This document shows, in pieces, positions 19,745 through 50,784 of a DNA stretch of 64,000 nt (within the stretch, counting starts at the first letter, position 1; each line of letters starts with the position of its first letter). The position numbers and the translations under genes were made by a program. This stretch comes from an uncultured Dehalococcoidia bacterium. GTDB taxonomy: Bacteria; Chloroflexota; Dehalococcoidia; Lucifugimonadales; UBA1123. The stretch covers positions 1,813,800 to 1,877,799 of the forward strand of contig OY282441.1 in assembly GCA_958296105.1 (NCBI GenBank). The letters run 5' to 3'. Under the pieces are notes generated by a model, which was not told the origin of the DNA, did not search any database, and saw nothing but the letters and a program-made list of their open reading frames with translations.

Positions 19745-20902
19745 CTAGGCGTCGGGCAGGTCTATCGGGTTCTCGAGAGCCTCCAGTATCTCACGGGCGA
19801 CGAAACGCTGCGGTCTCATGCGACGATCCTGATGCACGATTCCCGCTTCGAGCAGACGGTCGAGGACACGCCGGGCGCCAGCGCGGGTCATGCCCAAGAC
19901 TTCTGCCGCTTGGGAGACGGTTATGATGGGACTGGCGAAAAGCTCGTCCGTGAGTCGGAAGGCGCTCCCTGAGTCTCGACGCCCCTGAAGTATCTCGCGG
20001 TACTGTTCCTGAAGTCTCTGGATTCGCCCGATTCGCGCGCGCGAATCGTGGCACTCCTCCAATAAACCCGTCAGGAAGTAAGTCAGCCAACGCTCCCAGT
20101 CACATGTGATGCTGAGGTTGAGCAGCTCGAAGTAGTATCGCTGGCGTTGGCGTTCGAAATACGCGCTCATATACAGAAGGGGCGTGGGCATAACCCCGCT
20201 GGCTATCAGGATCAGCGTAATTAGAAGGCGGCCTATCCTCCCGTTGCCATCCTCGTAGGGGTGAATAGCCTCTATCTGATAGTGCATCATCCCGCAGCGG
20301 ATCAACGGCGGGATGTACATGGTCTCATCGTTGGCGAACCGCTCCCAGTCGTAGAAAAGGTCGCGCAGGTACTCGGGCGGCGGGGGTATGAACCGCGCAT
20401 ACTCTATCGGCGAACCGGGTGAGCCAATCCAGACCTGAGCGCGCCTGAACTGGCTGGGGTGTCTATCCTGTCCGCGAACGCCCGCCATGAGTCGGGTGTG
20501 CATCTCGTTGATCAGTCTAAAAGATATCGGGAGCTGGTTGAGTCGCTCTATGCCATACTCCAGAGCTTCGACATAGTTGACCACTTCCCTGACGTCTCCG
20601 ACCGCAGATCCGCCTCTGCCAGCTTCGTAGGAGAATACGTCTGACAGTGACGCAACCGTACCCTCGATCCTCGAAGAGAGAACGGCCTCTCGTCTCAGCA
20701 GGGGACGAATCAGAAGGCGTGTATTCTGAACATTCTTGCCTTCGCCTGCCAGCGTTCCCACTGCCAGCGTTGTCCGATCCAGCAGCCATACCAAGCGCGG
20801 ACTGAGATCCATCTCCCTGGGCAGAAGGCCCGGCACGAATGCCTGCTGCCCTCGAACAGTCGGGACCAATGCGCCACATGAGCTATCCGCCAGTTTCTGC
20901 AT
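19745..20902 (-). CDS. Fic-family protein with N-terminal inhibitory helix motif and C-terminal wHTH-like tail
   Basis: Fic motif HPYEDGNGRIGRLL. Upstream SSRIEG fits the (S/T)xxxE(G/N) inhibitory motif. More AT-rich than its neighbours. Confidence 0.9.
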   Translation of the reverse strand: MQKLADSSCGALVPTVRGQQAFVPGLLPREMDLSPRLVWLLDRTTLAVGTLAGEGKNVQNTRLLIRPLLRREAVLSSRIEGTVASLSDVFSYEAGRGGSAVGDVREVVNYVEALEYGIERLNQLPISFRLINEMHTRLMAGVRGQDRHPSQFRRAQVWIGSPGSPIEYARFIPPPPEYLRDLFYDWERFANDETMYIPPLIRCGMMHYQIEAIHPYEDGNGRIGRLLITLILIASGVMPTPLLYMSAYFERQRQRYYFELLNLSITCDWERWLTYFLTGLLEECHDSRARIGRIQRLQEQYREILQGRRDSGSAFRLTDELFASPIITVSQAAEVLGMTRAGARRVLDRLLEAGIVHQDRRMRPQRFVAREILEALENPIDLPDA

Positions 20903-21037: not shown

Positions 21038-22429
21038 ATGCCATACTGCGTCCCTAGAATCGGATGCGTGTCTGCCAGTCAGAAAGTCCCCAAACCGTTT
21101 GACCTCAGCAGCGAACGAACTGTACACTTCCAACCGTCGATTTCATCCCAAGCCTGCGCGCATGACGCTTGGAGCAATCACTTGGAAGAGCAGCTAAACA
21201 GTCGTCGGCTGTGGACAACCGTCGCGGCGTTCCTGTTGCTGGGCATCCCCGCGCTCGCGCTCGGCGCGCCACAGCTATTTGGCTCGGAGTCTCACCTCGA
21301 CCCGATAGTCGCCGTCCTCATCTTCGGCATCGGCATCGTGGCGGGCGCGTTCCTGCTGTCCTGGGCGGCCGAGGTCGCGCAGATAGACGTGTCGGCATCG
21401 CTCGCGATCGCTGTGCTGGCGCTCATCGCCATACTGCCCGAGTACGTTATCGAGTTCGTCTTGGCGCGGGACGCGGGAGCCACCTTCGATGTGGTAACGC
21501 GGGAGGTTACTCCCGAAATCTCCAGGGTTGCCGCCAACGTGACCGGGGCCAACCGGCTGCTGATCGGGCTTGGCTGGGCCGCGGTCATCCTCATCTACTG
21601 GATAAAGCGGCGTCGCGCGCTGGACATGCGCGGCGAGATGGGCTTGGAGATAACCATGCTCACCATCGCCACGCTGGCCACGCTGCTCATATTCTTCATG
21701 CAGCAGGTCCACTTCATTCTGGCGGTGGGCCTCATCGGCCTGTACGTCGCCTATCTGTGGATCAGCTCCACCAGAGAGTCGGAGGAGCCCGACCTGATTG
21801 GCGCGGCCGCGCTCATCGGGTCGCAGCCAACGGCCCGTCGCCGCGCCATCGTGATCTTCCTGTTCGTGTACTCCGCCATCGTGATCATCGCGGCGGCGGA
21901 GCCTTTCGTGCATGGTCTGATCGAAACAGGCACGCAGTTCGGCATAGACGAATTCACGCTGATTCAGTGGATCGCTCCGCTCGCTTCGGAGTCGCCGGAG
22001 ATCATCGTGGCAGTGCTGTTCAGCCTGCGCGCGAACCCGGTCGCGGGGCTGACCGCGCTGATCTCGGCCGAGGTCAACCAGCTAACGCTGCTGGTCGGAA
22101 GCATGGTCGTGGTATTCAGCGGCGCGGCCGGAGATGCGCTGCTCACACCGCTGAACTTCCCGCTGGACTGGCGACAGTCCGTTGAGTTCCTGCTGACCAC
22201 CGCCGTATCCGCCGCCGCGCTGCTGCTGATAGCCAAGCGCGTCATCAACTGGAATATAGGCGCGATCCTGCTGGTGCTGTTCATCGCGCACCTGCCGTTC
22301 CTCGAACCCAGTCAGCGGCTGCTATTCGCGTTCATCTACTTCGGAATCGCGCTCGGAGTCGTCGCGATGGATTGGCGAAGCGTCAAATTCCTGTTCCGCG
22401 AGGATCCGCAGGAGCTGGAGACGGCCTGA
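21038..22429 (+). CDS. Polytopic membrane protein, probably a CaCA (Na+/Ca2+ exchanger-type) cation antiporter
   Basis: Two internal alpha-repeat-like segments (ILPEYVIEF and LASESPEIIVAV). Highly hydrophobic. The true start is uncertain, since the first ~60 aa look non-membrane. Confidence 0.5.
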   Translation: MPYCVPRIGCVSASQKVPKPFDLSSERTVHFQPSISSQACAHDAWSNHLEEQLNSRRLWTTVAAFLLLGIPALALGAPQLFGSESHLDPIVAVLIFGIGIVAGAFLLSWAAEVAQIDVSASLAIAVLALIAILPEYVIEFVLARDAGATFDVVTREVTPEISRVAANVTGANRLLIGLGWAAVILIYWIKRRRALDMRGEMGLEITMLTIATLATLLIFFMQQVHFILAVGLIGLYVAYLWISSTRESEEPDLIGAAALIGSQPTARRRAIVIFLFVYSAIVIIAAAEPFVHGLIETGTQFGIDEFTLIQWIAPLASESPEIIVAVLFSLRANPVAGLTALISAEVNQLTLLVGSMVVVFSGAAGDALLTPLNFPLDWRQSVEFLLTTAVSAAALLLIAKRVINWNIGAILLVLFIAHLPFLEPSQRLLFAFIYFGIALGVVAMDWRSVKFLFREDPQELETA

Positions 22430-22430
22430 A

Positions 22431-23987
22431 TCAGGAGTCACCGCCGCCTATCCAATCCGCCGCCCGCTCCGCGATCATTATGGTCGTGGCGTTGGTGTTG
22501 GCGCGCACCACGTCCGGCATGATGGAAGCGTCCACCACGCGCAGCCCCTCCATGCCGTGAACCCTCAGATGCTGGTCGACCACCGCCATCTCGTCGGACG
22601 CAGGCCCCATCTTGCAGGTGCCGGATGAGTGGTGTTGAGTTCCCACGTTCGCCATCATCCACTTGTCGAGCGCCTCGTCGCTCGCCAGATCGTCCTCGGT
22701 CGGCGTGACCGGCCCCTCGATCAGCGCGGAGAGCGGCTCGCGACGGGTGAGGTCGACGCAAGCCCTCAGCCCGCCGCGCAAGCGCTCGCGGTCCCAAGGA
22801 TCCACCAGATAGCGGTAGTCCAAGTGCGGCTGGACGCGCGGGTCGCTCGATGTCAGGGTGAGACGCCCGGACGAGACGGCTTTCTGAAGCGCGCAGCTGA
22901 ACCCGGCGTATGACGCGCCTTCCGGAATATCCACGTGCGTTGGCCTATGCTCGCTCGTGAACAGGATTGGGCTCATCTGCATGTCGTTGCGGTGAGGCGA
23001 GCCGGGAGTGGTGTAGCGCATTCCCGCCTGAATGCCGGGGGTGTCCGCAGGCGGCGCGTCCACGTTGGCTTCGAAGAGCATGAAACATGCGGGATGGTCT
23101 CTGAGGTTCTCGCCCACGCCGGGCAGATCGTGGACGACCGCGATGCCCATAGATTCCAGATGGGCTGCCGGGCCGACTCCCGACAGCATGAGCAGGTGCG
23201 GAGAGTTGATCGCTCCGCCGCACAGGATGATCTCGCCGCCGCGCGCCTCGAACATCTCGCCTCCGCTCTCTGCCAAGACGCCCACGGCGCGGCTGCCCTC
23301 GAATATGACGCGGTGCGCTAGAACGTTGGCGCGCACGGTCAGGTTCAGCCTATGGCGCGCCATCGAAAGGTAGGTCAGGTTGGTACTCATTCGGACGCCG
23401 TCCACGTTGTTGAGCGGGCGCGGTCCGACGCCTTCCGACTCGGGATGGTTCTGGTCGAGCGATTCCGGATATCCGGCGGCTATGCAGGTCTCCCAGAATC
23501 GTCTGGGTATCTCGGTCATCTCCTCTTTGGAGTAGCGGCGGACGGGTATGGGGCCGTCGTCTCCGTGGAAATCGTCCGGCCCGTAGGTGAGGTCAGTCTC
23601 CGACTTTCTGAAGTACGGCAGCACGTTGACGTATGACCACTCTGGCGAGCCTAGCTCTGCCCACTCGTCATAGTCCTCCGGGATGCCCCTGAAGAACACC
23701 TGGCCGTTGATGGAGCTGGATCCGCCCGTGAGCTTGCCGCGAGGCAGCGGGAACGGCTCGCGGTCTGGGGTGGCGGTGGCTACGTAGCCCCACGTCTCCG
23801 CCTCCTCGCCGTAGGCGGCGTCCCATACGTTGTTGCCGAACTTGACGCTGTTCGGCATGTTGTCGAAGTCCGAGTAGTCCGGCCCCGCTTCGAGCAGCAG
23901 GACGGATCTATCGGGATTCTCGGTAATCCGGGACGCCAGAGCCGAGCCAGCGGAGCCGGCGCCAACGATGATGTAGTCGTACTGCAT
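22431..23987 (-). CDS. GMC-family FAD oxidoreductase (choline-dehydrogenase-like)
   Basis: ORF 22431..24005. MQYDYIIVGAGSAGSALASRITE. GGSSSINGQVF. C-terminal HHSSGTCKMG...LRVVDASIMP. ATG 23987 is preceded by AGGAG. Confidence 0.9.
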   Translation of the reverse strand: MQYDYIIVGAGSAGSALASRITENPDRSVLLLEAGPDYSDFDNMPNSVKFGNNVWDAAYGEEAETWGYVATATPDREPFPLPRGKLTGGSSSINGQVFFRGIPEDYDEWAELGSPEWSYVNVLPYFRKSETDLTYGPDDFHGDDGPIPVRRYSKEEMTEIPRRFWETCIAAGYPESLDQNHPESEGVGPRPLNNVDGVRMSTNLTYLSMARHRLNLTVRANVLAHRVIFEGSRAVGVLAESGGEMFEARGGEIILCGGAINSPHLLMLSGVGPAAHLESMGIAVVHDLPGVGENLRDHPACFMLFEANVDAPPADTPGIQAGMRYTTPGSPHRNDMQMSPILFTSEHRPTHVDIPEGASYAGFSCALQKAVSSGRLTLTSSDPRVQPHLDYRYLVDPWDRERLRGGLRACVDLTRREPLSALIEGPVTPTEDDLASDEALDKWMMANVGTQHHSSGTCKMGPASDEMAVVDQHLRVHGMEGLRVVDASIMPDVVRANTNATTIMIAERAADWIGGGDS

Positions 23988-24015: not shown

Positions 24016-25656
24016 CTAAACCCGGTACTGGTCTATGCCCACTGTGGAAGCGCCCTCGCCGGTGGGCATAACCAGCGTCTTGGCGCGGTCCGCTCCCACG
24101 ACGACTATGTACCAGCGATCCACGCTTTCGAGCAGCGGCACGGTGATTTCCAGCCGCTCCCGCTCCGTCAGCCCCTTCAGCCACTGCCACTGTTGGCCTA
24201 CGCGCGCGTCGTCTATCGGCATGTACTGGATCATCTTGCCCAGACTCTGGTTGGCGTGGAAGTGGATGAGCTGCCTTGCCTCCTGTTTCGAGAAGCCCTG
24301 CCCGCCCACCGGCCGCGCCACGTCAGGCGGCATGAAGATCAGCCGCTCCGCGCCGTGGCTGCCGCCAAGCCCGTATGTGCCGAACGTGCTGCCGTAGGCG
24401 ATGGTTTTCAGCAGACCCTCGGCGCTGGTGTTGCCCTGATCCTGAACGTCCAGCTCGCCGTCGGTGATGAACACGCTTACCGCACTCTCGCCCGCGCCGA
24501 AGCCCTGATCCACGTGGAACGGCTGCCACGGGCTCATCTCCTCGTTCTCGGCGATGCAGTGGACGAACTTGCGCGTGGTGCCGATGGTGTCCATATCCAT
24601 CTGTCCCGGGTACCAGTAGCCTAGGTTGCGGAGGCACAGCGAGAAGGCGCGCCCGATGGTGATGTTCACCTCGTTATCGCGGCCGGGGCCGAGACCGGAG
24701 CGCGGGTTGATTCCGATTTCGCGCGCTATGGGGCCGTTGACGACGAGCATGGGCGCGTGCGGGCTGGTGGACATCAGCAGCGACTTGCCGCCGTGCGAGC
24801 CGACCTCGGAGAGCGCCTTGACCGCTGCGATTATCACGGGCATCTGCTCAGGCTTCGCGCCTGCCATGGCCGCGTTTATGGCGATCTTCTCCACCGTCGC
24901 CAGCCCGAACCCCGGCGGCATGTCGCACACGAGATCATCGCGGTCGAGTCCTGTTCCAGAAACCAGCTCGTCGACCGCCTCGGGCGTGGGCGGGTGCAGG
25001 ATCAGCGAATCTCCCCAGTCGCGCATCAGCCACTGCTCGTTCATCTTCAGGATAGCGTCCCAGCGGTCTTCGCCCTCGAAGCGCTCGGTGGCGGTGGTGG
25101 AGTCGCGCTCCGTCCGCCCGTGTAGCTGGTCGACGGTCAGCACCTCGATGATGTCGTCTATCGCCGCCTCGGTCTGGCTGACGCACAGGTCGGGCGCGAG
25201 GTTGCGGTAGATGCGCGGCACTATGACGAACTGGAGGTCTGGCATGGCGAAGGCGCGCGAGCTGGCGATCGCGTCCTCCTCGAAGCGTCCGGATACGATC
25301 GGAATGGCGGGCTTGCCCGTCTTTTCGATCTCGATCATGTCGTGGACCATCCACGACGCGCATGTCCCTCAATCGGCTGTTGCGCCGATGACGACGTCGC
25401 ACTCCCTCGCAGCCTGCTGGACTATCGGCGGCGGAGCAGGGTAGTTGCCGCCTGTGTAGAACCTGATCTCGACGTTGTCGAATCGCTCTTGGATCATCTC
25501 GCCCGCGCGATTCAGCGCCAAGTCGCCGCCGTGCGTGCCGCTCCACAGCAGCCCGACTGTCTTGTTGTCCAGAGTGTCGGGCCTGGGGCTGATCGTAAGA
25601 GAGTTCATCAGCCCGCGCTGCCGTCCTATCGGGTTCAGCGCTTCGAGAAGATACAT
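24016..25656 (-). CDS. Candidate selenoprotein: UGSC-like domain (motif U-G-T-C, in-frame TGA at 25369-25371) fused to a ~370-aa domain of unknown function
   Basis: ORFs 25369..25656 and 24016..25350 are in the same frame, separated only by TGA plus 6 codons. Read-through gives ...VVIGATAD-U-GTCASWMVHDMIEIEKTGKPAIPIV, parallel to the stand-alone UGSC gene at 49186. A perfect 8-bp hairpin lies 14 nt after the TGA (25339-25357). Confidence 0.6.
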
Positions 25657-25800
25657 GGGGAAGCCTCCTAGCGTGTCTTGGATGGGTTGGAATCCGAATC
25701 TCGACGGGGATTATATCCCAATTCGGCGCGGGCGGACACTTCCGCGTAATCCGAATAGCGCCAACGTGCGCGCGTTGACGGATATTCTCTCGAACGGAAG

Positions 25801-25951: not shown

Positions 25952-26713
25952 TTGGAGATGCCTGAAGCCACGCTGACATTCGAGATAGGCGGTCGAGTGG
26001 AGTTGAAAGACCTCAGCGAGGGGATAACTCTCTTCGAGCGTCTCGTGTCCAGTTTGACGCCCAGGGCAGGCGTGACTTGGGTGGTGGAAGACCTGCGGGC
26101 GGGGAGCGCCACAGCGACGCTGAGAGGCGAAGCCAACTCCCCCGCCGTCTTGGAGCGCGTCATAGCGGACTACGAGGAGATCGGGCGCTGCCTTTCGCTG
26201 AATCGAACCCCGATTCACGACAGCGAGCGGGCGGTAAAAGCCGCGCGAGATATTGCCGCGTTCGCAAACCGCCTCGAATACGTCAGGTTCGAGACGCCGA
26301 GCCAAGACTACCTGATCTACGGAAATGGGAGCGCGGACGCCGATATCCCGACTTCCCCGTTGGTCAGCGTAGGCGCGATAACCGGAAGGGTTCAGACCCT
26401 GAGCAGCCGCTCCGGGTTGAAGTTCACCATGTACGACGACGTTCTCGACAGGGCGGTCGCGTGCTACCTCGAGCAGGGTCAGGAAGACATGATGCGCGAG
26501 GCTTGGGAGGCTTGGGGCAGGCGCGCCACGGTCGCCGGAAGAGTATCGAGAAACCCCGCGACCGGCGTTCCTCTGTCCATGCGCGACATAGTGAAAGTGG
26601 ACATCTTGGAAGACGCCGCCCTCGGAACGTATCGAGAGGCGAGGGGCGCCGTTCCACTGAGACCCGGCGACATGCTGCCCGAAGAAGCCATACGCATTCT
26701 CAGAGATGCCTGA
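25952..26713 (+). CDS. Hypothetical 253-aa protein, translationally coupled upstream partner of the PIN gene
   Basis: ORF 25952..26713. Protein-like composition. Its stop overlaps the PIN start (ATGCCTGA, 8 nt). I recognise no DNA-binding antitoxin motif. Confidence 0.6.
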   Translation: MEMPEATLTFEIGGRVELKDLSEGITLFERLVSSLTPRAGVTWVVEDLRAGSATATLRGEANSPAVLERVIADYEEIGRCLSLNRTPIHDSERAVKAARDIAAFANRLEYVRFETPSQDYLIYGNGSADADIPTSPLVSVGAITGRVQTLSSRSGLKFTMYDDVLDRAVACYLEQGQEDMMREAWEAWGRRATVAGRVSRNPATGVPLSMRDIVKVDILEDAALGTYREARGAVPLRPGDMLPEEAIRILRDA

Positions 26714-27197
26714 TACTCCAAAAGCCATATACTGGGATTCGTGCAATTTCTTGTCGTATGTGAACGAGATGCCGGAGCGCGTCCCCGTTCTCGAAGCCTT
26801 GCTCGAAACGAGCGCTCGGGGCGAGATCGAGTTGTACACGTCCACTATTTCGCAAGTCGAAGTGGCGTTCGGCGCTTCTGAGCAACAACAGCGGGTGCTG
26901 GATCCAGATGTGGAGCACTCAATAGATTCCCTATGGGCGGATCCGAAAACCGTGACCGTCGTCGAGTTCCACCCTCACATCGTTCAGGCTGCAAGAGGCA
27001 TGATGCGCTACGCCATCGCGCAAGGGTGGAGTCTCAAGCCGATGGACGCCATCCATCTTGCAACCGCCCAGTGGCTGCGGAGCGTGGGAGTTGGCGTAGA
27101 AGAGTTCCACACATACGACGGAAGGCTGCATAGGTACGGCGACATAGTTGGCTGCCAGATCCGCGAACCGTATACTCGACAGCCCCCACTGCTTTAG
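26706..27197 (+). CDS. PIN-domain (VapC-like) ribonuclease
   Basis: Acidic residues in the expected PIN spacing: YWDSCNF, SQVEVAF, KPMDAIHLATA, HTYDG. Confidence 0.75.
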   Translation: MPDTPKAIYWDSCNFLSYVNEMPERVPVLEALLETSARGEIELYTSTISQVEVAFGASEQQQRVLDPDVEHSIDSLWADPKTVTVVEFHPHIVQAARGMMRYAIAQGWSLKPMDAIHLATAQWLRSVGVGVEEFHTYDGRLHRYGDIVGCQIREPYTRQPPLL

Positions 27198-46344: not shown

Positions 46345-48906
46345 TCATGCCAGCCCTGACAGCGCCTCCCTCTGGCGCGCCATGCGGCTGTCGCGCTCGG
46401 CTGCGAAGCGCGCTATGCCGGCGTAGATGGATTCGGCGTCCAGGCGGGCTTCGGCGATTACGTCCGCCTCGGTTCCGCCGGTCAGCCACTGGTTATCCCA
46501 GTCCGAGGTCAGCGAGTACTCGTCCGTCAGCGGGCCTGGGTTTTGCACGGGCCACATTCGGCGGGTGCCGGTGGTGACTATCATCAGGTCGTACTTCGCG
46601 CTCGCTGGCAGGACGGAGTCTTGGTACTCCTGCGACTGGCGCAGGAACAGATCCTCGCTGATAGCGGCGATCACCCTGACGTTGACTCCCGCCTTCTCCA
46701 GTCTCGGCAGCACGGAGACGAGGTTCACCGTGGAAGACGAACCCTGCACCAGCACGCAGCCGTCTCTGGGCTTGTCCGGGTCGAAGTCTCGGATTAGGTA
46801 GAAGCCCTTTGCCGCGGCCTTTAGGTCGGAGTCCGCGAATGTGCTGCGGTCGGCGACGGGGAAGTCCGGCCTTGCGACTTCGAGGACGATGACGCCCACC
46901 TTCGCCTCGCGCGCGGCTATCTCGGCGGCGGCAAAGTAGCCGGGGGCGACGTCGTTGTAATCCCAGAAGCTGAGCGTTATCGCCTGACCGCGCGGGAACA
47001 GCTTCCACACCTGCGGCGCGAAGATGCCGAAGTGCGTGCGCGCGTCTGCGGCAGTCTCCGGCCCCGAGTGTCCTGCGAGGATGTGCAGTACGCCCGTCCT
47101 GAAGGGGCTGTCTTGGTTCTGCTGGCTCCAGACGCGCGAGGGCAGGTACATCAGCGGCGTGAACGCGCCATACGTGCCGCTGAGCGCCCAGACTCCAACG
47201 TGCTTGTCTGGGTCGAGCGAGACGGACTGCCCCACCAGCCCGATGGCGGTGGATGCGTTGCCCGCCTCTTGGATAGCGGCTTTGAGCCGTCCGCCGCTGG
47301 GGTTGGCAACCGGGTCGAACGTGTCCCAGATCGCGCCATGCTCCACGTTGATCGACTCGGCGAGGTCAGCCGCGACCACGATGAATCGGTTGTCTGTCAC
47401 GTAGTTCATCCACTTGATGATCTCGGAGATGGCCCTGCGCGTGCCGCGCACGTTGCCCGGCTCCTCGAACAGCTTGATGGAGAGCGGCTTGACTTCGCCC
47501 GATGACGGGTTGGTTGCCTCCAGATTCTGAGGCTCCGACGGCAGGTTCTCGACTGCGAGCCGCGAATCTTGGAACGGATCCTTGGCGCGGTCGATTCTCA
47601 GCGGCAGGCTGTCATCCACGCTGTCGCCTATGTCCGCCAGCCTGTCGGCGATCCAGTCGCCCAGCCCGTCGTTGTCGAGGACGGACAGCGCTATGTCCAT
47701 GTTCCGCTTGAACTGTAACAGCCGCTCGCGGTCGTCGGAGACGGCGCCGTTCCTGATCCCCTCGAACTCGACGCCGAAGCGCTCCTCGAACGTGCCTGCG
47801 AGCGCCACGAAGTAGTCGCCGTTCATGGCGAGGTTGTACGGGTGGCTGTGGTAGCTGACGACCTGCTCGCCGAAGCCGGGTATCTGGCCGTCCACCGCCC
47901 CGGGCCACCAGCCCTTGACAGTCTTGCCCACCACGATCATAGGCCTGTCGTCTTCGTGATCCCACTCCTCCATCGTCTTGAGCGCGGCGACGACCTGATC
48001 GTAGTCGTTGCCGTTGTCGAGTGCCATGACGTTCCAGCCATACGATGCCCACTGGTCTTCGATTCTGTAAGCGTCGTAAACCGGGCGTATGACGCTGCCG
48101 ACCAGCTCGTCGTCGATGCCCGCGTTGTTGTAGGAGAGCAGCAGGCGCAGCCGCTTGCCGACCTGCTGAGCCACTGCCGCCGTCTTCATCTCTTGGGAGT
48201 GTCCCGACGTCAGCGCGAACTCGCCCTCTATGGCGATGATCTTCAAGCTGTCCGGCGCGCCTACTATGTCCCAGAAGGCGGCCTTGCCCGCCGACGTGGC
48301 TATCCCGATGCCGGATGGCCCGCCGTTGACGTCGTTGGTCAGGTCTGTCGTCTCGGAGTGACCCGCGAGCGATCTGATTCCGCGAATCTTCGCTTGCGCC
48401 ATGAGCGGGTGATCCACGAGGCCGCTTTCCTGAAGAAGCGTGTCCAGCGCCTCCCTGCCCCGTCGGAAGCCGAGCGCGTCTATCGAGAGCATGGACGTAT
48501 TGGGGTCGGCGGCGTATCGGTCGTCGCCCGTGCTTGCGCGCTTGCGCGCCAGCGCCTCGCCCATGATCATCCACAGCGCATAGGTGACGGGGGCGTTGTG
48601 ACCTCCCGCCAGCATGAAGCGGTCAGAGTACGGGTGCTTCGGCCTGCGATAGTCGTATCTCAGACCGCCGAGATCGGGGCCAACCAAGTGCGAGGCGACG
48701 GTGTAGGGGGTGTAGGCAAGCGGCCCGCCGAAGTGTCCGGTCTGCGCGTAGTTGCCCAGAAGAACCAGGGTCATGGCCGTCAGAAAGCCGACGTCCTCGA
48801 TGCGCTCCTTGTCGTAGTCTGGCAGATCCACTTCGCGCGAGACCCGCCCCTGCGACAGTGATAGGGAGTTGACTATTGCCGTAGAGCTTCCGCTTGTTGC
48901 GACCAT
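46345..48906 (-). CDS. Large transketolase-like ThDP enzyme (853 aa)
   Basis: TGHFGGPLAYTPY and GGHNAPVTYALW resemble the transketolase N-terminal ThDP-binding region. The family assignment is tentative. Confidence 0.5.
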   Translation of the reverse strand: MVATSGSSTAIVNSLSLSQGRVSREVDLPDYDKERIEDVGFLTAMTLVLLGNYAQTGHFGGPLAYTPYTVASHLVGPDLGGLRYDYRRPKHPYSDRFMLAGGHNAPVTYALWMIMGEALARKRASTGDDRYAADPNTSMLSIDALGFRRGREALDTLLQESGLVDHPLMAQAKIRGIRSLAGHSETTDLTNDVNGGPSGIGIATSAGKAAFWDIVGAPDSLKIIAIEGEFALTSGHSQEMKTAAVAQQVGKRLRLLLSYNNAGIDDELVGSVIRPVYDAYRIEDQWASYGWNVMALDNGNDYDQVVAALKTMEEWDHEDDRPMIVVGKTVKGWWPGAVDGQIPGFGEQVVSYHSHPYNLAMNGDYFVALAGTFEERFGVEFEGIRNGAVSDDRERLLQFKRNMDIALSVLDNDGLGDWIADRLADIGDSVDDSLPLRIDRAKDPFQDSRLAVENLPSEPQNLEATNPSSGEVKPLSIKLFEEPGNVRGTRRAISEIIKWMNYVTDNRFIVVAADLAESINVEHGAIWDTFDPVANPSGGRLKAAIQEAGNASTAIGLVGQSVSLDPDKHVGVWALSGTYGAFTPLMYLPSRVWSQQNQDSPFRTGVLHILAGHSGPETAADARTHFGIFAPQVWKLFPRGQAITLSFWDYNDVAPGYFAAAEIAAREAKVGVIVLEVARPDFPVADRSTFADSDLKAAAKGFYLIRDFDPDKPRDGCVLVQGSSSTVNLVSVLPRLEKAGVNVRVIAAISEDLFLRQSQEYQDSVLPASAKYDLMIVTTGTRRMWPVQNPGPLTDEYSLTSDWDNQWLTGGTEADVIAEARLDAESIYAGIARFAAERDSRMARQREALSGLA

Positions 48907-49185: not shown

Positions 49186-49734
49186 ATGGTGACAGCGACC
49201 CGTACCCAGCATATCTTGGTGGATCCCACCACTCAGCCGATTGTGCCTGCGTTCGTTCCGGCTCCGAGGCTGGACTCGCTGGCGAACAAGCGGCTCGGCC
49301 TGATAGACGACGCCAAGGATGGCGCGCGCGAGCTTCTGGAGGAGATAGCGGACGTTCTGAAAGAGCGTCACGGAGTCTCCGGCGTGGCGTACCACCGCAA
49401 GCCTTCGGCGTCCAAGCCCGCCGACCCCGACGTGATGCGCGACATGGCGCGGGATTGCGACTACCTAATCATCGCAATCGGCAGTTGAGGGTCTTGCAGC
49501 GCGTGCAGTGTGCACGACGGAATTCACGCTGAGAAGGCAGGCATCCCCTCGGTGACTATCTGCACCGACATATTCGAGGTGACCGCCAGATCCATGGCGC
49601 AGATGTGGGGCGCTCCTGCCTACCCCATCGTCCTGACTCAGCACCCGATCGCCGAGCTAAACCGCGAGCAGCTGAGGGCAAGGGCAGAGGACATGCTGGC
49701 TGAGATGGAGGCGATACTGCTGGGCGCGACCTGA
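49186..49734 (+). CDS. UGSC-family selenoprotein candidate (in-frame TGA at 49486-49488)
   Basis: ORFs 48997..49488 and 49510..49734 share one frame. Read-through gives ...DYLIIAIGS-U-GSC-SACSVHDGIHAEKAGIPSVTICTD. ATG 49186 is preceded by GGAGG. Candidate hairpin at 49491-49518. Confidence 0.65.
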
Positions 49735-49737
49735 GCG

Positions 49738-50784
49738 CTACCCGGACAGATCCTCGAACACCGTCCGCCACTCCGAGGCGTCCCCGTCTCCGAAGCCGGC
49801 GCGATAGACTATCACGCCGTCCGCGCCAAAGGCGACCTTGGTGGACTGGTAAGTGACCTTGAAGTTGGCGAGAGTCCCCTTGCCCGGCTGGACTATCGGC
49901 CAAGGATACCCTTCTCGCTCGCCGAACGCCTCTAGGCTCTGGAATGTGTCCGTAGGGTCTACGTTCACCGCGTAGAAGTCCACCTTGTCCGCGTACTCCG
50001 GGTAGATGTTTTTCAGGCTCCGCAACTCGGAGCGGCACGTCCCTCAAAACGTGGCGAAGAAGAACAGGAACGCCGGACGTTCACTCTCCAACAGGGTGGC
50101 AGTAGTCATAACAGCGCCGTCGGCTGAGGCGAGAGAGAATTCGGGTATCCGCTCGCCTACGCCGCTGCCAATTTTCGCAGCCGGCGGAGGCGCGGTTGGC
50201 ACAGGCGTAGGAGTTGGAGGAACGGCGGTCGCGGTAGGCGCGGGCGTCGCTGTGTTGGTAGGCGTAGGAGGAATGGCGGTCGAGGTAGGCGCGGGAGTTG
50301 GAGGAACGGCGGTCGAGGTAGGCGCGCTGGTAGGAATCGGCGCAGGAGTGGCAGTGTCGGCAGGCGCGGGCGTTGGAGGCGCAGCTGTGGCGGTAGGTGC
50401 GGTCGATGCGGCGGGAGCCGTCGTAGGCGCGGCTGTGACGGTAGGCGCGCTGGTCGGGATTGGCGCAGGAGTGGCAGTGTCGGCAGGCGCGGGCGTTGGA
50501 GGCGTGGCGGTAGGCGCGGTGGATGCGGGAGCCGTTGTAGGCTCGGCAGTGGCGGTAGGCGCGCTGGTCGGGATAGGCGCAGGCGCGGCTGTGCTGGTCG
50601 GAATCGGCGCGGGCGTGTTGGCAGGCGCGGGAGGCGGCGTGCTGGTGGGCGCGGATTTCGAGGCGAGCGCGGCAGTCGCCACTGCCGCCGGCGCGGACGG
50701 CTCCGCTTCCGGCGCAGTCGTTCCGCACGCCACGGCGACGAGGGCAATTGTCGATATGATTACTGTAACGATGAGCCTAGTCAC
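49738..50784 (-). CDS. TlpA/ResA-like thioredoxin-fold lipoprotein, selenoprotein candidate (U-G-T-C; TGA at 50044-50046) with a long Pro/Ala/Thr linker
   Basis: ORFs 50044..50784 and 49738..50025 are in the same frame. ...ERPAFLFFFATF-U-GTC-RSELRSLKNIYPEYADKVDFYAVNVD aligns with the WCxxC region of TlpA/ResA. Signal peptide plus Cys (LVAVAC). Confidence 0.65.
50321..50680. repeat. Tandem ~114-123-bp repeats encoding the Pro/Ala/Thr-rich linker
   Basis: Units start at 50321, 50444 and 50558 (ggcgcgctggt(a/c)gg(a/g)at...). The protein repeat reads APIPTSAPT.TA.PTTAPA.STAPTAT..PPTPAPADTATP. Confidence 0.75.

Follow-up and report, generated by a model that had tools for sequence, protein, structure and literature searches.

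UGSC proteins are abundant selenoproteins without known function (Zhang & Gladyshev, PMC2398784, PMC1976440) and, with 255 genes in the Global Ocean Sampling (GOS) data, are among the most abundant selenoprotein families of ocean metagenomes (PMC2398784). Members of the family are small single-domain proteins of ~150-215 amino acids (aa). The 2008 GOS selenoproteome paper also contains a 'UGSC/Unknown_1' fusion (PMC2398784, Fig. S1A), in which Unknown_1 is a conserved domain with a conserved cysteine that occurs as a stand-alone protein in some aquatic organisms; a gene-neighbour partnership of the two domains, its scale or a fold are not part of that paper. Here, we describe a two-domain selenoprotein gene of an uncultured Dehalococcoidia bacterium, which is located within a stretch of 64,000 nt (contig OY282441.1, positions 1,813,800 to 1,877,799) that was analysed as a whole and is referred to as the window. 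On its minus strand, positions 25656..24016 constitute one gene, whose product is a selenoprotein of 546 residues with a UGSC module fused to a C-terminal domain of ~355 residues. The protein shares with the UGSC family a full-length model match, the U-G-S/T-C motif, and the type and offset of the selenocysteine insertion sequence (SECIS) of a stand-alone UGSC gene; it differs from the family in its length and in its second domain. The architecture is probably that of the UGSC/Unknown_1 fusion, as compared by text description alone, and the fusion as such is therefore probably not new. Our literature search yielded no report of a systematic gene-neighbour partnership, of a fold, of a link between UGSC and the reductase subunits GrdB or PrdB, or of selenocysteine (Sec) use in SAR202, and the systematic partnership of UGSC with the C-terminal domain (C-domain) appears to be previously unreported.

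In our view, the locus is best explained, with a probability of roughly 70%, as a Sec-recoded fusion in which a UxxC redox module would serve a catalytic C-domain, for which we infer the redox chemistry, the class of substrate and the electron donor.

A single gene with an in-frame selenocysteine codon

The complete coding sequence (24016..25656, minus strand) extends from an ATG at 25656 to a TAG stop codon at 24018-24016, and the lone interruption of the 546-codon frame is the TGA at 25371-25369, codon 96. In the list of open reading frames (ORFs) the locus appears as two pieces, 25369..25656 and 24016..25350. They share one minus-strand frame: the first comprises 95 codons (25656..25372), the second (25350..24016) opens at Met103, the first ATG past the TGA, and the gap between them consists of the TGA and six sense codons. 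Translation across the TGA yields ...GATAD-U-GTCASWMVHD... around residue 96, which bears out the shared frame and the ATAD-U read-through product proposed in a preliminary description of this stretch. A Shine-Dalgarno sequence, AGGAGG, is read 7 nt upstream of ATG 25656 (25664..25669, minus strand); a search of the sequence upstream of ATG 25350 revealed no ribosome-binding site.

Comparison with related loci demonstrates that the UGA (25369..25371, minus strand) is decoded as selenocysteine, U96. We assembled an orthologue set of 83 loci, which consists of 80 genome loci (75-93% identical, all from Dehalococcoidia, SAR202 or Chloroflexi metagenome-assembled genomes), two contigs and the window. 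The codon is TGA in all 83 loci, never TAA or TAG, and its setting, ATAD-U-GTCASWM, is invariant. The two parts of the protein are similarly conserved among the 82 orthologues, with a mean identity of 80.5% over the 95 residues before the TGA versus 84.2% after it (r = 0.87). In the two homologous contigs a separate 95-aa 'UGSC' ORF is positioned just 5', and read-through results in the identical ATAD-U-GTCASWM peptide. Further support comes from homologues in which Sec is replaced by cysteine. An exhaustive search of cluster representatives identified proteins of 549-582 aa, with matches beginning near residue 100, that carry C-G-S-C instead of the U-G-T-C present here (CTADCGSCTSW, STGDCGSCTSW); Cys occupies the Sec column in P0124, P0127, P0138, P0140, P0150, P0151 and P0168. 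Two of the full-length Cys homologues cross the TGA of the window uninterrupted (tblastn, 25680..24058). In the UGSC genes of other loci, the key codon is TGA in 72 cases and a Cys codon in 7.

The N-terminal part of the protein belongs to the UGSC family with high significance (Pfam PF24696, E 1.6e-28, 100.4 bits versus a cut-off of 25), and the match covers residues 7-174 on positions 3-171 of the 172-position profile. Consequently, the TGA interrupts a domain midway and does not separate two genes. The corresponding NCBIfam model, NF041046, gives 93.1 bits, which is below its equivalog cut-off of 125, and annotation pipelines thus miss and split the gene. Accordingly, fused genes are divided into ORFs of 95 and ~444 aa in every database record that we examined, which we regard as an annotation error.

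These records constitute the main argument for a different reading of the locus, namely a truncated UGSC gene terminated by a real TGA stop, followed by a separate gene from ATG 25350 for a protein of 444 residues: the best 120 database homologues are all recorded with ~389-450 aa, beginning right after the TGA, and separate 95-aa ORFs have been called upstream. Such a split would bisect the UGSC domain, and it would leave the second gene with a start that has no ribosome-binding site. It is further contradicted by the exclusive use of TGA in the 83 loci, by the covarying hairpin conserved after the TGA, and by the Cys homologues, which are uninterrupted. We therefore consider two separate genes to be highly improbable. 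The full-length Cys homologues also show that the two parts are not always separate genes with starts of their own, and together with 19 further fusions, which all have UGSC followed by the C-domain and a stop-free linker, they establish that the fusion is genuine.

The hairpin following the UGA

For the SECIS element of Escherichia coli fdhF, the minimum is an upper stem-loop at a distance of 11 nt from the UGA. The fused gene has a SECIS-type hairpin at 25339..25357 (minus strand) with an 8-bp stem, GUCGUGGA/UCCACGAC, and the loop UGG, which agrees with this minimum. The perfect 8-bp stem at 25357-25339 is as stated in the preliminary description, which had placed it 14 nt after the UGA; this number is obtained when counting from the U, and the true spacing is 11 nt past the last base of the UGA.

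Several lines of evidence indicate that the stem is under selection at the level of the RNA, as might be expected of a SECIS element. In 79 distinct sequences from orthologous loci, four of the five synonymous sites within the stem (GCG, TCG, GTC, CAC, GAC) are invariant, and the fifth exhibits a single C-to-U change by which a G-U pair is retained. Flanking synonymous third positions vary freely in the same sequences, with an entropy of up to 1.86 bits. A hairpin is also found at the same offset in the 72 TGA-type UGSC genes, which reside at unrelated loci. To evaluate covariation, we used a gap-free alignment of 74 distinct, diverse Sec-type UGSC genes. In this alignment 89.7% of the cells are paired, as opposed to 15-45% in controls with a shifted 3' arm, and changes on both sides occur in six of the eight pairs, one of which (21-27) appears as G-C 46 times and as C-G 26 times. 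The covariation score of 0.249 compares with 0.117 for shuffled alignments, and none of 500 shuffles scored as high.

Some UGSC genes of the Cys type have no hairpin (minimum free energy near -7.6 kcal/mol). A good hairpin is still present at the SECIS position of the Cys-codon (TGC/TGT) genes L083, L091 and L092, and is gone in L131 and L136. The retained hairpins may mark recent conversions from Sec to Cys; alternatively, the conserved S-W..H-D peptide may force part of the complementarity in the Cys-type genes.

The UGSC module and its partner domain

The UGSC domain (residues 7-174; 25135..25638, minus strand) is recognised by both PF24696 and NF041046 and is joined to the C-domain by a variable linker (residues ~175-191; 25084..25134, minus strand), which is weakly conserved and changes in length throughout the alignment. 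The D-U-G-T-C motif occupies residues 95-99 and ends with the resolving Cys99 (25362-25360, minus strand). It aligns with the C-G-S-C of the Cys homologues and with the U-G-S-C of the stand-alone gene that begins at 49186 in the window; both proteins match the UGSC family, and the collinearity noted in the preliminary description holds.

For structural modeling we used the full-length Cys homologue P0124. The AlphaFold model (predicted local distance difference test, pLDDT, 91.2; predicted template modelling score, pTM, 0.91) places the CxxC at a junction between β-strand and helix, its pLDDT drops at the linker, and the pTM indicates that the two domains pack confidently against each other. 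A Foldseek search of the PDB with this model returned flavodoxin, WrbA and similar three-layer α/β proteins, all of them through the UGSC domain. A thioredoxin-like fold had been guessed for UGSC in 2008 (PMC2398784). The modeled structure instead strongly suggests that the module is flavodoxin-like and that a helix begins at its redox motif.

UGSC sequence and profile searches of the PDB gave no match, and the fold search with the model yielded no structure of GrdB or PrdB. At the level of NCBIfam profiles, 21 diverse UGSC domains matched GrdB (10 domains, best E 2e-5), GrdF (7), the selenoprotein B subfamily (5), GrdH (4) and PrdB (2). These matches are below threshold yet recurrent, and they fall on the part of each reductase model that bears Sec. 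With the GrdB-type model, the window's stand-alone UGSC attains 17.7 bits against a cut-off of 602. Based on these profile similarities, we read UGSC as a putative remote homologue of the Sec region of GrdB/PrdB and not as a member of that family.

This link, together with the strong preference for Sec, makes a direct nucleophilic role of Sec conceivable, in which UGSC and the C-domain would be a functional analogue of glycine/proline reductase B: Sec would attack a substrate activated on the C-domain and reductively cleave a C-N, C-O or C-S bond via a selenoether, which Cys would resolve. The matches to the GrdB, GrdF and PrdB models precisely at their Sec regions would be in line with such a role, as would the UxxC motif, which UGSC has in common with PrdB (PMC2398784). 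Sec is favoured over Cys in 60 of the 66 partner UGSC genes with a readable key residue (TGA in 60, Cys in 6), which suits a catalytic nucleophile, and the C-domain as a constant second component parallels GrdE/PrdA, given that GrdB, GrdF, GrdH and PrdB likewise need a second, substrate-specific component. However, the C-domain has no similarity to the pyruvoyl proproteins GrdE and PrdA and no Gly_reductase Pfam match, and genes similar to GrdA, GrdC or GrdD are absent from the neighbourhoods that we examined. Moreover, the whole CxxC is missing from some fused homologues, and the hosts, among them aerobes and haloarchaea, are not Stickland fermenters of amino acids. Hence, a mechanism of this kind appears unlikely.

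The C-domain (residues 192-546; 24019..25083, minus strand) represents a large unannotated family. According to the preliminary description, the protein could not be placed after about residue 190, and our searches agree: residues ~192-546 have no Pfam or NCBIfam match, 18 stand-alone homologues likewise have none even at E<=10, and phmmer and profile hmmsearch with the C-domain revealed no relative among the PDB sequences. By these searches, the domain does not match a well-known enzyme. A search with the 444-residue ORF retrieved 3,953 representatives of clusters at E<=1e-3, and of the candidates scored with a profile of the C-domain only, >5,600 proteins matched. All are named 'hypothetical' and originate from Chloroflexi, Burkholderiales, Methylomirabilota, actinomycetes and a Natrinema plasmid. 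A profile self-comparison gave no internal repeat.

Conservation was determined with hmmalign on 261 family sequences, using C-domain numbering. D25, R145 and E179 are invariant, K172, E181, H190 and D163 are conserved at 91-93% and K266 at 86%. C76 and C176 are the only two conserved Cys columns, at 93% each. In the protein described here, C176 is Cys367 (24556..24558, minus strand) within the motif K-x-x-x-C-x-A-E-N-E; the position of C76, which in the family belongs to the motif A-I-N-A-V-M-A-G-C, is occupied by Ala267 (24856..24858, minus strand). Certain fused homologues that have lost the CxxC still keep C176, an indication that catalysis takes place in the C-domain.

The AlphaFold model of the C-domain of the window is of good quality (pLDDT 89.9, pTM 0.91). 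Its top Foldseek match in the PDB is a class I fumarate hydratase (FH), 7xky_A (E 6.9e-6, probability 0.99), followed by ~20 Leishmania FH chains and then, at E ~0.2 and with poor template modelling (TM) scores, by Toblerone-fold cyclic amide hydrolases. This hint at a fold raises, as a weaker rival, the possibility that the C-domain is a distant iron-sulphur (Fe-S) hydro-lyase of the class I fumarate hydratase/tartrate dehydratase type that hydrates or dehydrates a dicarboxylic acid, with UGSC providing cluster ligands, protection or repair instead of redox turnover of the substrate. The class I enzymes (Methanocaldococcus jannaschii FH alpha, 7xky; Leishmania major FH, 5l2r) are the best fold matches, and their carboxylic-acid substrates would suit the genes for carboxylic acids and coenzyme A (CoA) esters that neighbour the family elsewhere; two conserved Cys ~100 residues apart and the U/C-x-x-C motif would make up four potential ligands. 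However, the fold matches are weak (TM 0.20-0.29, root-mean-square deviation 15-19 A), hhalign of the C-domain with E. coli FumA gives a probability of 0.1, and the Pfam family Fumerase does not match the C-domain even at E<=10. In addition, conservation does not extend to the three-Cys cluster site, as the family has two conserved Cys instead of three and the clade of the window retains one. We know of no natural Fe-S cluster that is ligated by Sec. A hydro-lyase activity is therefore quite unlikely, and with poor TM-scores and a negative hhalign result we did not assign the C-domain as a fumarate hydratase and retain this similarity as a lead alone.

What characterises the C-domain is its association with UGSC. 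On five long contigs with stand-alone C-domain genes, 10 of 10 C-domain genes are either fused to UGSC or located next to it on the same strand, and on a haloarchaeal plasmid the genes for UGSC and C-domain overlap by 4 nt. For an independent sample, we drew 80 metagenome loci on the basis of C-domain motifs, and these contain 82 copies of the C-domain. UGSC is fused or adjacent to 68 of these: 17 copies are fused, always in the order UGSC to C-domain with a linker without a stop, UGSC is immediately upstream of 26 and immediately downstream of 25. For the remaining 14 copies UGSC was not found, 7 of them being no more than 700 nt away from a contig end. The C-domain family is thus almost always accompanied by UGSC, as a fusion in the present gene and as a pair of genes elsewhere. 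The fused or adjacent arrangement strongly indicates that both domains form one functional unit, of which the window contains the fused form. By the Rosetta-stone logic that the preliminary description had put forward, the outcome is clearly positive, and its expectation that a Sec module fused to an uncharacterised domain might give a handle on UGSC is supported by the constant partner.

Tandem UGSC/C-domain units occur in L087 (2371-10765) and L088 (1933-9107), each with three units, of which one is fused and two are split into gene pairs; every unit has TGA, and those of L087 adjoin SelA and a thioredoxin-reductase-like gene.

Proposed role and genomic context

Translation starts at ATG 25656 behind the AGGAGG, and the UGA is read as Sec under the direction of the hairpin, a bacterial SECIS to which SelB would bind. 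The D-U96-G-T-C99 motif is predicted to be placed at the N-terminus of a helix of the flavodoxin-like UGSC domain. The C-domain would bind and transform a small carboxylate-type substrate, probably by its conserved D, R, E, K and H residues and Cys367, and the UxxC module may act as a built-in two-electron centre that alternates between selenol/thiol and selenenylsulfide and thereby delivers or removes two electrons. Re-reduction of the module might be accomplished by a thioredoxin-type system. Judging from neighbouring genes elsewhere, the substrates might be small organic acids or CoA esters.

Redox modules that are fused to their clients are known from thioredoxin- and glutaredoxin-fused methionine sulfoxide reductases and from peroxiredoxins. 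The similarity to these proteins is in the CxxC/UxxC relay, which is present as a neighbouring gene or as a fusion depending on the genome; unlike in those systems, the relay proposed here would be flavodoxin-like and the client is an enzyme without assignment.

With respect to substrates, unfused UGSC/C-domain pairs in other genomes have recurrent neighbours. These include TctC, tripartite ATP-independent periplasmic (TRAP) and ATP-binding cassette (ABC) solute-binding proteins, family III CoA-transferases, enoyl-CoA hydratases, and acyl-CoA dehydrogenase, hydroxymethylglutaryl (HMG)-CoA-lyase-like and amidohydrolase genes; in one such locus a thioredoxin-reductase-like flavoprotein and SelA are found. 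Loosely, these neighbours suggest that organic acids are taken up and degraded by CoA-linked pathways.

A number of observations weigh against a Sec-dependent redox module that serves a catalytic C-domain. Neither selA, selB and selD nor a tRNA-Sec was detected within the 64-kb window by ARAGORN, Rfam and tblastn with SelA; the three UGA-interrupted redox genes of the window and the SelA beside a UGSC/C-domain cluster in L087 speak indirectly for such machinery. Some fused homologues are entirely without a CxxC, and redox cycling is therefore not universal in the family. The exchange of Cys76 for Ala is specific to the clade of the window, and a relay that requires both cysteines of the C-domain is accordingly impossible here. 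The C-domain itself lacks any recognisable motif for a cofactor or substrate, its fold matches are only weak, and the similarity of UGSC to GrdB/PrdB is far under the family thresholds. Around the fused gene, no conserved neighbourhood is shared by the 83 orthologous loci, and the clade thus provides no operon clue. Finally, UGSC has been left without an assigned function in reviews up to 2026.

As to this neighbourhood, the GMC oxidoreductase, permease and exchanger of the window are next to none of the other orthologues, and a PIN pair is next to one. The GMC-family oxidoreductase, dependent on flavin adenine dinucleotide (FAD), is encoded at 22434-23987 (minus strand), 28 nt past the stop codon of the fused gene and with a GGAG of its own. 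From this arrangement, it is probably co-transcribed with the fused gene in the window; a GMC oxidoreductase is found at the equivalent position in 0 of 82 orthologous loci. Head-to-head with the fused gene (25952-27197, plus strand), a 253-residue ORF without Pfam match overlaps a PIN-domain gene (26706-27197) by 8 nt in a toxin-antitoxin-like arrangement, and this pair is located beside the orthologue in one other locus, L025. Further downstream of the fused gene and unrelated to it are genes for a Na/Ca-exchanger-family membrane protein (21038-22426, plus strand) and a Fic/DOC-domain protein with a C-terminal winged-helix region (19748-20902, minus strand).

The window contains one further selenoprotein gene and one candidate for another. 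The stand-alone UGSC selenoprotein is encoded at 49186-49737 (plus strand) with the TGA at 49486-49488 and matches NF041046 with 143 bits. Its hairpin, GCGUGCA-GUG-UGCACGA, is of the same type and at the same offset as that of the fused gene. No partner C-domain for it is present within the 64-kb window, unlike in most pairs; its neighbours are a transketolase-like gene (46345-48906, minus strand) and a candidate for a thioredoxin-fold selenoprotein. The latter (49738-50784, minus strand) has an in-frame TGA at 50044-50046, and read-through would join a lipoprotein-like N-terminus, through ~200 Pro/Thr/Ala-rich linker residues, to a thioredoxin-fold domain of the AhpC-TSA/Redoxin type (PF00578, E 2.3e-13 when U is written as C). 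Its product carries FFFATF-U-GTC, and a hairpin, GCUCCG-AGUUG-CGGAGC, begins 10 nt past the UGA. The window alone thus has three UGA-interrupted redox genes.

A further possibility, which we consider doubtful, is that UGSC and its partner constitute a new and very widespread selenoenzyme, fused or two-component, which would be a third lineage beside the B components of glycine and proline reductase and whose Sec/Cys centre would perform reductive chemistry on organic acids. Its hosts would be marine and soil heterotrophs, e.g. SAR202, other Chloroflexi, Burkholderiales and haloarchaea. If this were the case, the role of a very abundant orphan selenoprotein family of the ocean would be explained and a new catalytic fold would be defined. 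With three UGA-interrupted redox genes in the window, SAR202 probably uses selenium. For the UGSC family, the partnership turns an orphan into a two-part system that is amenable to joint expression, assay and crystallisation, and its function thereby becomes approachable by experiment.

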